A stretch of DNA of 63,967 nt, the filler included. It is 5 parts of 5 records of this genome, joined end to end, with 100 filler letters (N's around TTAATTAATTAA, not from the genome) between each part and the next. Parts side by side here need not be neighbours in the genome. Positions count along the whole stretch, not along the records: positions 1 to 17,576 come from SRR22947725_1544; 4 more parts are not named here. One strand, given 5' to 3'. Both the position numbers and the translations under genes were made by a program. The notes beneath the pieces are model-generated. The model ran no database searches. It was not told where the DNA came from and saw only the letters and a list, made by a program, of their open reading frames with translations. Positions 10,108-58,846 of the stretch are shown here, piece after piece (position 1 is the stretch's first letter; every line of letters begins with the position of its first letter).

Positions 10108-13095
10108 ATGCAGCTAAATCATATAAAACTTTCAGGTTTTAAAAGTTTCGTAGATCCAACGAAGATATCTTTTCCGACAAATTTAGTGGGTGTTGTGGGG
10201 CCTAACGGTTGTGGCAAGTCTAATGTTATTGATGCTGTTAGATGGGTTCTTGGAGAACTATCTGCAAAAAATCTTCGTGGCGAATCTATGGTCGACGTTA
10301 TTTTTAATGGATCTGAAAATAGAAAACCATCTGGGCAATGCAGTATCGAGCTATTATTTGATAACTCAAGTGGAAAAATTGGTGGCGAATATGCTTCATT
10401 CAATGAAATTTCGATTAAAAGAGTTATGACTAGAGATGCTCAATCTACCTATTTCATTAACAGCACAAAATGTAGAAGAAAAGATGTTCAAGACATATTT
10501 TTAGGAACGGGACTAGGCCCAAGCTCATATGCAATTATTGAACAAGGCATGGTTAGTAAATTAGTAAGCGCAAAGCCTGAAGAGTTAAGAACCCATATTG
10601 AAGAGGCTGCTGGAGTTTCAAAGTATAGAGAAAGAAGAAGAGAAACTGAGAGCAGAATCAAAAAAACTAAAGAAAATTTATCTAGAGTTAAAGATATTAA
10701 AGATGAGATTGAGAGGTTAATCAGAAGGCTCGAAAATCAAGCAAATGCTGCAGAAAAATATAATCAATTTAAAAAAGATGAAAGTCAGAAGCAAACCGAT
10801 ATTGCAATACTATACTCACTTGAGGCTAAAAATAATCGAGATAAACTTCAAAAAAATCTTGATGCGTTAAATAGAGATTTAAAAATCAAGCAGGCTGAAT
10901 CAGATTCAAAACAAGCTCAAATTGATGAACATAGAACACAAAATGCTTCTGTTGTAGATGCATATGAAAATGCTCAAAAAAACTTCTATTCGATAGGTGC
11001 TGATATAGCTAAATATGAATCAGATCTTCAAAATGTTAGCAAATTAGAAATTTCTAATACAGATGCTCTCGAAAGAGCAAAAACAAGCTATCAAGATGCT
11101 GTTGAAAAAGAATCAAGTTTCAAGGATTTAAGCCCTAAAGAAAAAGAATTAAAACTAGATATTGCTATTGTAAAAGCTCTTGATGCTCTTAAGCAAAAAA
11201 GTATTATTGATGTCTCCATAAATCCCTTAGAGGAAAAAATTGCTCAAAAACAACATGAACTCGACTCAAAACAAAATATTGTAGATGCAGCTAAAGCAGA
11301 TCAGACTGAAATTACCGAAGAAATCAAAATTCTTCAACAACAAAAATATTCTATTGAGGCTGATATTGCAAGACTTGAGGGGGCACTTCAGAACCTCAAT
11401 AAGATAGAAGAGAACGCAAGATTAGATTTTGAGAAAGCAAGCAGTAATTATTCTGATGCATTGCAAAAAGAGGCCAATAACGAACACTTGACCCCAAAAG
11501 AAAAAGCTATTCATTTACTTGATTCTATCACCGAACTATTGAAAGCATTTGGCTCTAAAGCAGATTCATTAAACTCCAAGGTTGATGAATTAAAAGTACT
11601 GCTAATAAATATCCTTAAAATTGCATCAGATCAATCTAAAAATTATACAGCTGATTTTTTAAACAGAAAGAATCAACTAGAAGATCTTATCAGAACAACA
11701 TCTGAAGATGTATTCTCTAAAAATAAAGAATTATCTGAATTAAAAGAAAAGAATATAAAAATTAAAAATGAGTTGGACTCTGGGTTGGAAAACCAGCGTA
11801 ATGTTGATGAAAAAATTAGAGACTTAGATAGCAGCAAATCATTAGTATCGAATGAACTACGAAGTTTAGAAAAGAATATTTCTGATTACAGGCTTGAGTT
11901 AAGAACGCATGAGATTAATCTAGAAAATGCTTCCATGGTATTGGATAAAGCTGGTATAAGTTTATCAGAACTAGATTCATCTAAGTATGCAGGAGCAGAC
12001 CTTGTAAGCCTGGAGAATTCACTAGATGAGATTCAAAAAAATATTGCTGAATTAGGATCATTTAACCTAGCTTCACCGGAGGAATATTTAGAAAGACAAA
12101 AAGAGCTTAACAATATGATTTCAGATGGCAAGGCTAAAAAACTTGAAATTCAAAAAGTTATGTCAGATCTTGTTGAAAAAAGCTCTATTGCTGAATCAAA
12201 ATTAACTGACATTAGACAAAAGCAGTCAGAATTTAATAACAGTTTAAGAGAATTAGAAAATCAAAAGTCTATTGCTGATCTTGATTTAAAATCTATTGGT
12301 GAGAAGGTTACTAACCTTAGGCTTGAGCTTAAAACCCATGAGATAAATTTAGATAACGCTAATACTAAAATTGCAGAATCTGGAGTAAATATAGAAAATA
12401 TTGATTTTTCAAAGTATGAAAATATGGATATTAATGAGTTGCAGAATAGTCTGACAGATATCCAAGCTAAAATTATTCGTCTTGGAGCAATTAACTTAGC
12501 AGCTCCTGAAGAAATTGCATCCGAATCAAAAAGAAAGGAAGAATTAGATATTCAGTATAATGACTTAACAGAAGCCCTTGAAAAACTTACTGGAGCTATC
12601 AAGACAATTGATATAGAAACAAAGACAAGATTTCAAGATAGCTTTGATGCTATTAATAATAGAATGAAAGAGGTATTCTCAAAATTATTTGGTGGTGGTA
12701 TAGCTGAGTTAGCTTTGACTGAGGATGATGCATTAAATGCTGGTGTGGTTATTATGGCAAGGCCCCCAGGTAAGAAAAATTCTTCTATTTCACAATTATC
12801 TGGTGGTGAAAAAGCTTTAACTGCTTTAGCACTAGTTTTTGCAATATTTGAACTCAATCCTGCACCATTTTGTATATTAGATGAGGTAGATGCTCCTCTT
12901 GATGATCTAAATACAATGCGTTTTATAAATATGGTTGAAGAGATGTCAAAAACAGTCCAATTTATCTTCATCACTCATAATAAAGTATCAATGGAAAAGA
13001 GTGATCATTTGATGGGTGTAACAATGCAGGAGGCCGGTGTTTCAAGAATGGTATCCGTTGATGTAAATCAAGCATTAGAATTTGCTGAGGCCTAA
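10108..13095 (+). CDS. smc: Chromosome segregation protein Smc (995 aa; atypical, no recognisable hinge, internally duplicated arms)
   Basis: GFKSF, Walker A GPNGCGKSN, R-loop AKNLRG, Q-loop IIEQG, EEAAG, signature LSGGE, Walker B/D-loop ILDEVDAPLD, ITH. Confidence 0.95.
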   Translation: MQLNHIKLSGFKSFVDPTKISFPTNLVGVVGPNGCGKSNVIDAVRWVLGELSAKNLRGESMVDVIFNGSENRKPSGQCSIELLFDNSSGKIGGEYASFNEISIKRVMTRDAQSTYFINSTKCRRKDVQDIFLGTGLGPSSYAIIEQGMVSKLVSAKPEELRTHIEEAAGVSKYRERRRETESRIKKTKENLSRVKDIKDEIERLIRRLENQANAAEKYNQFKKDESQKQTDIAILYSLEAKNNRDKLQKNLDALNRDLKIKQAESDSKQAQIDEHRTQNASVVDAYENAQKNFYSIGADIAKYESDLQNVSKLEISNTDALERAKTSYQDAVEKESSFKDLSPKEKELKLDIAIVKALDALKQKSIIDVSINPLEEKIAQKQHELDSKQNIVDAAKADQTEITEEIKILQQQKYSIEADIARLEGALQNLNKIEENARLDFEKASSNYSDALQKEANNEHLTPKEKAIHLLDSITELLKAFGSKADSLNSKVDELKVLLINILKIASDQSKNYTADFLNRKNQLEDLIRTTSEDVFSKNKELSELKEKNIKIKNELDSGLENQRNVDEKIRDLDSSKSLVSNELRSLEKNISDYRLELRTHEINLENASMVLDKAGISLSELDSSKYAGADLVSLENSLDEIQKNIAELGSFNLASPEEYLERQKELNNMISDGKAKKLEIQKVMSDLVEKSSIAESKLTDIRQKQSEFNNSLRELENQKSIADLDLKSIGEKVTNLRLELKTHEINLDNANTKIAESGVNIENIDFSKYENMDINELQNSLTDIQAKIIRLGAINLAAPEEIASESKRKEELDIQYNDLTEALEKLTGAIKTIDIETKTRFQDSFDAINNRMKEVFSKLFGGGIAELALTEDDALNAGVVIMARPPGKKNSSISQLSGGEKALTALALVFAIFELNPAPFCILDEVDAPLDDLNTMRFINMVEEMSKTVQFIFITHNKVSMEKSDHLMGVTMQEAGVSRMVSVDVNQALEFAEA
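10798..11508 (+). repeat. Diverged tandem duplication in the Smc N-terminal arm (2 x 120 aa)
   Basis: DIAI at 10798 and 11158; KQAESDSKQ/KQHELDSKQ; YSIGADIAK/YSIEADIAR; SPKEK (11131)/TPKEK (11491); constant 360-nt offset. Confidence 0.9.
11653..12510 (+). repeat. Diverged tandem duplication in the Smc C-terminal arm (2 x 143 aa)
   Basis: RLELRTHEINL (11890)/RLELKTHEINL (12319); SKY; NSL..IQ; LGSFNLASPE/LGAINLAAPE; constant 429-nt offset. Confidence 0.92.
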
Positions 13096-13724
13096 TGGAA
13101 CAAAATATTGATATATATCTAATTGGTTTATCTGTTCTAATTTTCTTAATTATTACATTTCTATTCATTAGAAAAATTTCAAGTTCTGGAGAACTAAAGG
13201 TAAAAATTGAACCTATTACAGATTCTTTTGAGATCAAAGAGATAGATGAAATAGAGGTAAAATCTCAAAAAGCCTTTGACTTTAATGAGCATGATATAGA
13301 ATATCAAGAACAAAAACTTGTTGTCCTTAATTTAATATCTAACGATAAATCTATGTTTGATATCGATCAAATATATGGCTTTATGACAAATTCAAATGCT
13401 ATTCTTACTAACGGTTTTTTCGTGATTAAAGATACAAATAATAAAGAGTCATTTCGTATAGCAAATGCTTTAAATCCTGGTACTTTTGAAAATGAAACAG
13501 AAACTTTTGCTATTCTTTTGGCAACAGATTTGAATAACGTACCTAACCCATTGAGTTCAGTAAAAGAAATGGTAAATTTTGCTTATCATTTTTCTGAAAA
13601 ATTTTATGCAAATATATGTGATCAAGAAAGAATGCCTATAACAAAGCAAATGATTTCGCATATTGAATCCCAGGCACAGGAAATTATGAGATTAAAACAG
13701 CTTAGCAGTTTAGAAAATAAATAA
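13095..13724 (+). CDS. zipA: Cell division protein ZipA (compact)
   Basis: N-terminal TM anchor, C-terminal FRIANALNPGTF like the ZipA FtsZ-binding domain; directly after smc. Confidence 0.75.
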   Translation: MEQNIDIYLIGLSVLIFLIITFLFIRKISSSGELKVKIEPITDSFEIKEIDEIEVKSQKAFDFNEHDIEYQEQKLVVLNLISNDKSMFDIDQIYGFMTNSNAILTNGFFVIKDTNNKESFRIANALNPGTFENETETFAILLATDLNNVPNPLSSVKEMVNFAYHFSEKFYANICDQERMPITKQMISHIESQAQEIMRLKQLSSLENK

Positions 13725-13742: not shown

Positions 13743-15026
13743 ATGAAGCCCTGGAAAATAATTCAGAAATTAGAAAGCGACAATAGCAGGCTATTTAAAG
13801 AAGGTGTTATAGAAGATAATCTTCATGATATTATTTTACAAGAGGGGCTATCAATGTGTTTGGATGCGTTGGTAACATTTGGGGTCAAACAAGTTCCTGA
13901 ATCTAGTAATGACGGAAAAGGACTTGATTGGGATAAATTTAAATCATCTGCACTGCTTCTAATAAATAGGGAAAGAACTGGCCATGCTGCTAGAGATGAA
14001 ATTTTACATTTAATGTCTCTTGCTACAACAGAACAATGGAATGATTGGTATAGAAGAATTTTAATTAAAGATCTCAGATGCGGAGTAAGTCAAAAAACAG
14101 TCAATAATGTTTCAAAAAAAATGGGATTAAAATATAGCGTACCTGTTTTCTCATGTATGTTAGCTCATGATGGCGCCAAACATCCAAAAAAAATTCAAGG
14201 AAAATGTCTCGTTGAATATAAATATGATGGGGTTAGAGTCTTAGCTATTACAAAAAAAAATAGCACAACTCTTTATAGCAGAAATGGAAAAATTTTAGGT
14301 AATTTTCCGCATATAGAAGATGCACTAAATAAGAAAGAATTTAATAATCTAGTATTTGATGGAGAGGTAGTCAGCGATGACTTTCAGTCTCTCATGAAGC
14401 AAGTTCATCGAAAAACTAATGCTAAAACTGATGATGCTTATCTAGCTCTATTTGACATAGTACCTTTAGAAGAATTTAATAAAGGTAAAAGTAAGCTCAA
14501 TAGTCTAGAAAGAAAAGATTTGCTTAATGATCTGTCAAAAAATTTCAACTCTTGTATTAAACCGGTTGAATATGTAATCTTAGATTTTGATACCGAAGAT
14601 GGCCAAAAAACATTCTCAGGTATGAATAAGAAGGCATTAGAAGAGGGTTATGAGGGGTTAATGATCAAACCAATTAACGATATATACGAATCTAAAAGAA
14701 GTCACGCTTGGCTTAAGATAAAACCTTTTATAGAAGTTACTCTAAAGGTTACTCAAATTCAAGAAGGTACTGGAAAGCACGAGGGTAAGCTTGGAGCGTT
14801 TTCAGTTGAAGGAGAGGATGATGGTAAGTTTTTCTCTTTAAGTGTTGGAAGCGGCCTTACAGACGATGATAGAGAAAAATTTTGGAAAGCTAGAGATTCT
14901 TTAATAGGCCAATTAATTGAAATTAGAGCTGATGCTATCACTCAAAGTATTGAGGGAGAGCATTTCAGCTTAAGATTCCCTCGTTTTAAAACTTTTAGAG
15001 GCTTTGAACCGGGTGAAAAAATCTAA
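13743..15026 (+). CDS. ATP-dependent DNA ligase with N-terminal DNA-binding domain (T4/LigW-like)
   Basis: Motif I EYKYDGVR, SRNGK, III FDGEV, IIIa LFDIV, IV EGLMIK, V WLKIKP, OB-domain VGSG, VI LRFPRF; N-domain IKDLRCGVS. Confidence 0.93.
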   Translation: MKPWKIIQKLESDNSRLFKEGVIEDNLHDIILQEGLSMCLDALVTFGVKQVPESSNDGKGLDWDKFKSSALLLINRERTGHAARDEILHLMSLATTEQWNDWYRRILIKDLRCGVSQKTVNNVSKKMGLKYSVPVFSCMLAHDGAKHPKKIQGKCLVEYKYDGVRVLAITKKNSTTLYSRNGKILGNFPHIEDALNKKEFNNLVFDGEVVSDDFQSLMKQVHRKTNAKTDDAYLALFDIVPLEEFNKGKSKLNSLERKDLLNDLSKNFNSCIKPVEYVILDFDTEDGQKTFSGMNKKALEEGYEGLMIKPINDIYESKRSHAWLKIKPFIEVTLKVTQIQEGTGKHEGKLGAFSVEGEDDGKFFSLSVGSGLTDDDREKFWKARDSLIGQLIEIRADAITQSIEGEHFSLRFPRFKTFRGFEPGEKI

Positions 15027-17576: not shown

Positions 17577-17676
17577 NNNNNNNNNNNNNNNNNNNNNNNN
17601 NNNNNNNNNNNNNNNNNNNNTTAATTAATTAANNNNNNNNNNNNNNNNNNNNNNNNNNNNNNNNNNNNNNNNNNNN
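17577..17676. other. Artificial contig spacer
   Basis: N44-TTAATTAATTAA-N44; abrupt compositional change. Confidence 0.98.
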
Positions 17677-37885: not shown

Positions 37886-37985
37886 NNNNNNNNNNNNNNN
37901 NNNNNNNNNNNNNNNNNNNNNNNNNNNNNTTAATTAATTAANNNNNNNNNNNNNNNNNNNNNNNNNNNNNNNNNNNNNNNNNNNN
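37886..37985. other. Artificial contig spacer
   Basis: N44-TTAATTAATTAA-N44. Confidence 0.98.
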
Positions 37986-53025: not shown

Positions 53026-53125
53026 NNNNNNNNNNNNNNNNNNNNNNNNNNNNNNNNNNNNNNNNNNNNTTAATTAATTAANNNNNNNNNNNNNNNNNNN
53101 NNNNNNNNNNNNNNNNNNNNNNNNN
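53026..53125. other. Artificial contig spacer
   Basis: N44-TTAATTAATTAA-N44. Confidence 0.98.
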
Positions 53126-58746: not shown

Positions 58747-58846
58747 NNNNNNNNNNNNNNNNNNNNNNNNNNNNNNNNNNNNNNNNNNNNTTAATTAATT
58801 AANNNNNNNNNNNNNNNNNNNNNNNNNNNNNNNNNNNNNNNNNNNN
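58747..58846. other. Artificial contig spacer
   Basis: N44-TTAATTAATTAA-N44. Confidence 0.98.

Follow-up and report, generated by a model that had tools for sequence, protein, structure and literature searches.

Can a bacterium depend on an SMC (structural maintenance of chromosomes) protein that has no hinge? The hinge is regarded as essential to these proteins and as one of their defining features, and it was proposed in 2025 to be a gate for the bypass of obstacles. The question is raised by an smc gene in a stretch of 63,967 nucleotides (hereafter the window), which consists of five contigs joined by spacers of the form N44-TTAATTAATTAA-N44 at positions 17577-17676, 37886-37985, 53026-53125 and 58747-58846. 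The open reading frame at 10108..13095 (+) encodes a protein of 995 amino acids (aa) and is located well inside the ends of the first contig (positions 1-17576, about 30% GC). A sequence-only reading of this DNA had described the product as a housekeeping Smc in the smc-zipA context, the arms of which meet in a new, minimal dimerisation apex of about 49 residues. It had proposed a scan for the hinge domain and tests of apex conservation and of co-occurrence with scpA and scpB, and had named a hinge match in the central region and misassembly as findings that could overturn it. In the present analysis a housekeeping Smc without a hinge is supported, and a minimal dimerisation apex is plausible from the features of the sequence.

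Identity of the protein and absence of the hinge

The Pfam family SMC_N matched the window Smc over aa 3-979 (E = 1e-51), and the score with the NCBIfam model TIGR02168 (SMC_prok_B) was determined to be 848.4 bits against a cut-off of 567.35. The split ATP-binding cassette (ABC) ATPase head was complete. The N-terminal half (aa 1-170, 10108..10617, +) carries the Walker A motif GPNGCGKS and the Q-loop, and the C-terminal half (aa 831-995, 12598..13092, +) carries the signature LSGGEK, the Walker B motif ILDEVDAPLD and the H-loop. GPNGCGKS, Q146, SGGEK, LDEVDAPLD and H957 were invariant in an alignment of 60 sequences (A1), which agrees with the earlier claim of canonical ATPase motifs in both head halves. 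Among 13 ungapped long forms of 995 aa with a minimum pairwise identity of 56%, the numbers of invariant columns in the N and C halves were 134 of 170 and 110 of 165, respectively. The window heads matched 5xg3 and 3zgx in the PDB sequence search (E = 1e-105), and sequence and fold searches led to the Smc heads 5xg3, 3zgx and 5h68 of B. subtilis and Geobacillus and also to 5xei. No hinge entry was present among the matches of these searches.

On the head tree, the SAR86 Smc proteins formed one clade (100/100), sister to the canonical gammaproteobacterial Smc of 1164-1169 aa. The zipA gene lies directly 3' of smc, and in one SAR86 genome (G018) ligA was found about 0.8 kb from smc. A single Smc per genome was detected in 5 of 5 SAR86 genomes, besides RecF, UvrA and ABC-F-like ATPases; MukB (PF04310) was found in none of 5 SAR86 genomes and is not among the Pfam matches of the window Smc. 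The Smc head of genome G019 was 100% identical to the window head, for which reason G019 was treated as the window's own species. The proposed co-occurrence check resulted in ScpA and ScpB, encoded by adjacent genes, each in 8 of 10 SAR86 genomes including G019, and the two genomes without a match were 1.0 and 1.3 Mb in size. ParB was found in 5 of 5 SAR86 genomes tested and is present in G019, from which MukB is absent.

The ratio of nonsynonymous to synonymous substitution rates (dN/dS, Nei-Gojobori method) of the window smc was 0.06 with G019 (dS 0.12) and 0.05 with G095 (dS 0.56). The corresponding values of the apex alone were 0.06 and 0.03, and the proportion of nonsynonymous differences in the apex was lower than in both flanking inner-arm segments in 12 of 12 comparisons. 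The selection on the window smc is strongly purifying. The TIGR02168 score, the position of zipA, the head tree, the occurrence of a sole Smc, the presence of ScpA, ScpB and ParB, and the purifying selection all support the assignment of the window protein as the orthologous housekeeping Smc of a SAR86 gammaproteobacterium, as had been proposed from the letters.

The Pfam scan of the window Smc with SMC_hinge (PF06470) gave no match at E<=1, while in the positive control, the 1166-aa Porticoccus Smc (L016), the domain was located at aa 523-616 with an E value of 6e-10. SMC_hinge was also found in none of 8 SAR86-type proteins and 6 further short proteins at E<=0.1, in none of 5 SAR86 genomes at E<=1, and in none of 151 genomes sampled from the SAR86 order (the order of G001) at E<=0.01. 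The comparison by hhalign of the tip profile (A2, 18 sequences) with a profile (A4) built from the hinge regions of 14 canonical gammaproteobacterial Smc proteins resulted in a probability of 0.5%, by which the tip as a vestigial hinge was ruled out. The earlier statement that the apex has no CxxC motif can be extended to the whole protein: the cysteines of the window Smc occur only at positions 35, 78, 122 and 922, so that none is located within aa 123-921. The missing hinge had also been argued from the absence of a GX6GX3GG pattern. This absence carries no weight, because 0 of 5 canonical gammaproteobacterial controls matched the pattern; the part of the claim that stands is the lack of the domain itself, as determined by the Pfam and profile tests.

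Near relatives with 79-99% identity, taken from many independent contigs, were exactly 995 aa long in all 120 listed clusters, none of them with PF06470, and ungapped 995-aa smc genes were obtained from 12 of 12 further genomes. The head of the window Smc (aa 1-171) was found in 135 of the 151 order genomes at E<=1e-20. None of the open frames of those 135 was longer than 1010 aa; they clustered at about 729-759, 809-843 and 996-1010 aa, with four cut short (207-529 aa). The Smc lengths were 727, 732, 826 and 995/996 aa in SAR86 species-representative genomes and 1164-1169 aa in the neighbouring orders (Cellvibrionaceae, Porticoccus, Alcanivorax). The absence of the hinge is genuine and extends over the whole SAR86 order. 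The window protein is an Smc by descent; by architecture, with the hinge missing, it is not the canonical five-part protein.

Further Smc proteins without SMC_hinge at E<=0.1 were encoded at L003:6001-8820 (940 aa) and found as P0259 (941 aa) and P0225 (906 aa). On the head tree, L003 was not part of the SAR86 clade and had a long branch next to Alcanivorax; here another uncultured marine gammaproteobacterium may have lost the hinge independently. P0141 (990 aa) and P0241 (1003 aa) are similar in total length and have kept SMC_hinge (E values of 1.1e-05 and 4.7e-12, respectively). As the hinge is retained in them at about the same length, it is the arms that have been shortened, and length alone is no sign of hinge loss.

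The apex tip and a proposed closure of the dimer

The AlphaFold2 model of the window Smc, built with the 60 sequences of A1, had a mean predicted local distance difference test (pLDDT) score of 76.8 and a predicted template modelling (pTM) score of 0.41. Only helix was modelled between the heads: a helix at aa 346-456, a break at 457-462, a helix of 17 residues at 463-479, a turn at 480-481 and a helix at 482-614. The model of a 732-aa relative (L091; A3, 37 sequences; pLDDT 80.8) similarly had only helix between the heads, with helix 170-339, break 340-343, helix 344-360, loop 361-365 and helix 366-494. The two models agree in the succession of a break, a 17-residue helix, a loop and a return helix. 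The numbers of helical residues on either side of aa 480-482 in the window model are balanced, about 285 versus about 279-298. The secondary structure together with this strand balance suggests that the arm folds back at the loop aa 480-482.

The apex tip corresponds to aa 463-511 (11494..11640, +), with the secondary structure taken from the DSSP assignments of the models. It comprises a Ser/Thr-Pro kink, the 17-residue amphipathic helix, a variable loop and the start of the return helix up to the QSK motif. The 49-residue string given earlier as the apex corresponds to aa 467-515 (11506-11652, +); its start had been placed at 11509, one codon late, while the end of the preceding TPKEK at aa 466 was confirmed.

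The consensus of the tip is Ser/Thr-Pro-x-Glu-Lys-Ala at the kink and L-K-x-L-L-x-x-I-L-x-I-A-x-x-Q-S-K in the return helix. In 18 relatives of both lengths the residues P463, E465, K466, A467, L495, K496, I505, Q509 and K511 were invariant. Both the sequence and the length of the loop (aa 479-487) are variable, with a 5-residue deletion in 3 of the 18, and Gly482 was Gly in 12 of 18 aligned relatives. From the description of the apex as two amphipathic helices around one Gly, the helix-turn-helix is thus reproduced by the AlphaFold2 models, whereas the glycine is not conserved. The conservation test that had been proposed revealed a local peak of invariant columns at the tip: in the 13 long forms, 19 of 60 columns were invariant at aa 461-520, and in the inner arm on either side the counts were 11 of 110 and 28 of 140, N-arm unit 2 (11 of 110) being the least conserved part. 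The density of strongly hydrophobic residues reached its peak of 0.42 at aa 495-498, compared with an arm mean of 0.274 (standard deviation 0.061). The tip is the best conserved and the most hydrophobic part of the arm.

Conserved hydrophobic residues occupy positions 468, 470, 471, 474, 478 and 481 in the first helix and 488, 495, 499, 502, 503 and 505 in the second. According to a helical-wheel reading, they would cover roughly half of the surface of each tip helix. Since such coverage would exceed the need of a two-stranded coiled coil, it would fit packing against further helices, most simply those of a second Smc tip. Foldseek with the full window model aligned only SMC-family chains via the heads and the coiled coil, and nothing tip-specific was retrieved. 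The tip profile gave only weak, composition-like matches with PDB sequences (designed helical bundles and EsxA; E values of 0.003-0.03). The score for two copies of aa 431-550 in an ESMFold2 complex prediction without an alignment was 0.01, the mark being 0.32, which speaks neither for nor against pairing.

Characteristic stretches were also observed at the tips of other SAR86 classes. The proteins L103, L104 and L105 (732-736 aa), which belong to a deep-branching class, share a central conserved W-K-K-G-[YF]-x-[YF]-G-x-G, and a tip stretch E-x-x-W-x-x-[FY] is common to the members of the 82x-aa class.

On balance, we favour the explanation that the SAR86 Smc is functional with ScpA, ScpB and ParB, that its hinge was lost once, that the tips pair to close the ring, and that the arm is modular. 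The Smc would work together with these three proteins, and the loss of the globular hinge would date back at least to the common ancestor of the SAR86 order. Within the subclade of the window, the arms would fold back through the tip of about 50 residues. Two tips may then dimerise by packing together, most simply as a four-helix bundle. Such pairing would close the Smc dimer at the head-distal end, by which DNA holding and extrusion would still be possible; the tip would lack the channel of the canonical hinge. Pairing is proposed because of the conservation and the hydrophobicity of the tip. The need for closure is indicated by a study of the Wadjet complex (PMC12647877, referred to here for the accessible part of its text), in which a JetC 'core' SMC without the elbow-to-hinge segment cleaved plasmid only with a disulfide-closed ring, plasmid cleavage being the readout of loop extrusion, and by the B. 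subtilis Smc that functions with a Rad50 zinc hook instead of the hinge (PMC5344682).

Several results weigh against tip pairing as the explanation. The pLDDT blocks of the tip in the window model were 58-78, which corresponds to moderate confidence, and two places close to the heads, aa 775-787 and about aa 851, were equally hydrophobic. Only the 727-996-aa subclade has the SPKEKA...QSK motif, and the tips of the far 73x, 81x and 82x SAR86 classes are different, so that no one closure device is conserved throughout the order. The closure requirement, moreover, is known from the Wadjet complex and not from Smc-ScpAB.

An alternative that we regard as unlikely, although a serious one, is that the tips do not dimerise at all. 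Two Smc proteins would then be joined only near the heads, through bridging by ScpA and the ATP-dependent engagement of the heads; the arms might also zip up alongside each other, and the conserved tip would do no more than cap the hairpin. The retention of ScpA and ScpB is consistent with such an open clamp, as is the variation of tip sequences between SAR86 classes, which would be expected without a precise interface. However, if the tip were a plain cap, neither its 11 invariant polar or Pro residues nor a hydrophobic density above that of the rest of the arm would be required, and a closed ring was needed for loop extrusion in the one system tested (PMC12647877).

It is rather improbable that another molecule, such as DNA, ParB, ScpB or a small protein, docks to the tip and thereby provides closure or loading in trans. 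The conserved polar residues E465, K466, K496, Q509 and K511 are found more typically on a specific binding surface than in the core of a pure helical bundle, but no candidate partner gene is linked to smc, its neighbours being zipA and a ligase gene. Still less credit is given to an arrangement in which the arms are not folded back and each N arm pairs with the C arm of the partner protomer, so that a long antiparallel rod with composite heads at both ends would result. Without a hinge no domain enforces the fold-back, which is suggested by the secondary structure and the strand balance. The centre of the protein, however, contains a variable, indel-tolerant loop flanked by a Pro kink, the helical residues balance about aa 480-482, and the heads and arms are orthologous to those of the canonical Smc, the arms of which fold intramolecularly. 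The probability of a misassembled, chimeric or decaying gene is negligible: the stretch does concatenate contigs, one of which looks foreign, but smc lies deep in the first contig, its length of 995 aa recurs in 120 of 120 listed clusters and 12 of 12 genomes, its dN/dS is 0.05-0.06, and the hinge is missing order-wide, all of which contradicts the misassembly named at the outset.

Arm modules and the smc-zipA-ligase locus

Each arm of the window Smc contains a repeat, which was found by fragment-versus-fragment BLAST; the whole-protein self-BLAST gave the identity match only. In the N arm, aa 231-350 and aa 351-470 share 35% identity over 120 aa with no gaps (E = 1.5e-23). The former, N-arm unit 1 (10798..11157, +), is the outer, head-proximal module, and the latter, N-arm unit 2 (11158..11517, +), is the inner one. 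In the C arm, aa 561-673 and aa 704-819 share 38% identity (E = 5e-29) at an offset of about 143. The corresponding units are C-arm unit 1 (aa 515-657, 11650..12078, +), which is inner, and C-arm unit 2 (aa 658-800, 12079..12507, +), which is outer and ends with LGAINLAAP.

When the 732-aa relatives were compared with the long form, exactly one gap of 120 aa in the N arm and one of 143 aa (aa 515-657) in the C arm were detected, and 732 + 120 + 143 equals 995. The module absent from the short forms of 727-732 aa is the inner, tip-proximal one, composed of N-arm unit 2 (N2) and C-arm unit 1 (C1). According to the DSSP strings of the two AlphaFold2 models, it adds about 96-106 helical residues per strand. 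The arm is modular, and the 995-aa form has one extra inner module of about one coiled-coil superhelical period.

On quick trees of the units, 7 of 7 N2 units formed one clade with a Shimodaira-Hasegawa-like approximate likelihood ratio test (SH-aLRT) value of 97, and the same was determined for 7 of 7 C1 units with a value of 91. As both are monophyletic, the duplication arose once and is old. The outer units (N1 and C2) and the single units of the 727-732-aa forms were mixed on these trees, N1 grouping with the single N unit of the latter. C-arm unit 2 aligned with the C arm of the canonical Smc, and aa 1-503 of the window Smc aligned with aa 1-491 of the Porticoccus Smc. The long form as a canonical Smc minus its hinge was considered and rejected, since the inner arm proved to be a paralogous duplicate of the outer one.

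Long and short forms were interleaved on the head tree, and at least three state changes are needed to account for their distribution. Constraining 7 long forms together, a group chosen after the first head tree was seen, cost 177 log-likelihood units (approximately unbiased test, p-AU = 1.5e-39). Either the inner module was lost several times or the locus is exchanged between SAR86 lineages. Genome G035 has an ATP ligase, while its sister on the Smc tree, G043, has LigA, and this ligase pattern beside smc suggests lateral exchange.

A further-reaching interpretation, which we put forward tentatively and consider possible but doubtful, is that the SAR86 Smc is a natural minimal SMC. Closure would be provided by a helical hairpin, and the arm length would be toggled in whole superhelical-period modules, through at least three state changes or through lateral exchange at a recombination-prone smc-zipA-ligase locus. 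The longer arm would offset the lost hinge gate by threading larger obstacles through the lumen. In the accessible text of PMC12647877, longer arms were proposed to compensate for the lost hinge channel by threading obstacles through the lumen, and the idea may be relevant to the SAR86 form with long arms.

The conserved neighbour of smc, zipA (13095..13724, +; ZipA_C, E = 5.6e-14), encodes a short protein of 209 aa, in which the FtsZ-binding domain occupies aa 75-193, and its start codon shares one base with the smc stop codon. It is followed by a gene for an ATP-dependent DNA ligase of 427 aa (13743..15026, +; PF01068, E = 2.4e-22; PF14743, E = 2.3e-11). Among the 151 order genomes, NAD-dependent LigA (PF01653) was detected in 118, the ATP ligase in 20, both in none and neither in 13. 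In its 20 genomes the ATP ligase gene was always located just downstream of smc, which is the place of ligA in most SAR86. In the sublineage of the window, the ATP ligase seems to have replaced LigA in situ. To our knowledge, LigA is normally universal in bacteria, and bacteria without it are rare. In one SAR86 genome, ligA was split by an in-frame TAA (G139:C15:5668-6427).

The second contig (17677-37885) differs from the rest of the stretch in its GC content of 53-56%, compared with 25-35% elsewhere. It encodes GT4 glycosyltransferases, a GlmU/GlgC-like nucleotidyltransferase, TrmI and a WYL protein, and probably originates from another organism binned with this genome.

Comparison with known SMC systems

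The SAR86 Smc shares with the canonical Smc of the B. subtilis type of Smc-ScpAB the heads, the long antiparallel helical arms, the partners ScpA, ScpB and ParB, and the smc-zipA position. In contrast to the canonical Smc, it has no hinge, its arm consists of duplicated modules, and the arm length is dimorphic among close relatives.

The resemblance is also clear to an abundant SMC cluster of the OM-RGC ocean catalogue, which was described as having neither hinge nor CxxC, annotated as Actinomycetes and placed at the base of the actinobacterial Smc (PMC12153180, published in 2025). In the accessible part of that paper SAR86, Gammaproteobacteria and ScpA are not mentioned. The SMC heads, the lack of hinge and CxxC, and the abundance in the ocean match the SAR86 Smc, whereas the window Smc branches with gammaproteobacterial Smc and has SAR86 relatives, by which it is set apart from the cluster as annotated there, although the two may overlap in their members. 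The apex had been called new in the sequence-only reading; hinge-less oceanic SMCs are therefore already on record, but none is assigned to SAR86 in the text accessible to us (PMC12153180), and no report of a hinge-less SAR86 Smc was found by the literature search.

Rad50/SbcC and RecN have ABC-type heads on an antiparallel coiled coil without a globular hinge, according to the same source (PMC12153180), and this hinge-less coiled-coil apex resembles that of the SAR86 Smc. The window Smc, however, has no CxxC and is an Smc by its position on the tree. Its scores were far below those of both families: 54 bits with the Rad50 model (cut-off 1000) and 20.1 with the RecN model TIGR00634 (cut-off 407.85). 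A RecN is recognised by passing TIGR00634, a length of about 550 aa and short arms.

In B. subtilis, an engineered Smc in which the hinge was replaced by the Rad50 zinc hook, Smc(Zh), was functional, and the arm length was tolerated stepwise, with a functional period of 91 aa and a superhelical period of about 99 aa (PMC5344682, accessible portion). From these constructs and Mini-Smc it appears that the hinge is exchangeable for another dimerising apex, and the period is close to the approximately 100 helical residues of the SAR86 module. Those proteins are laboratory constructs with a zinc hook or the native hinge, whereas the SAR86 tip is natural and free of cysteine.

MukBEF, Wadjet II/III and the JetC core were reported to extrude loops without a bypass through the hinge gate, and the JetC core cannot bypass obstacles (PMC12647877, within the text accessible). 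MukB and JetC II/III have kept the hinge domain and lack the channel, whereas in the SAR86 Smc the whole domain is missing. The partners also differ, being ScpAB in SAR86 and not MukEF or JetAB.

SAR86, among the most abundant bacterial groups of the ocean, runs its sole condensin without a hinge and with ScpAB and ParB, which separates the needs of the motor core from what the hinge adds. The dimorphism of long and short forms, together with the matched modules, provides natural material for the rule that arms change in steps of one superhelical turn, and the small tip is suited to direct biophysics or to a swap into the Smc of a model organism. If the interpretation as a natural minimal SMC is true, the SAR86 protein would be the natural counterpart of the hinge-swap and arm-tuning experiments.

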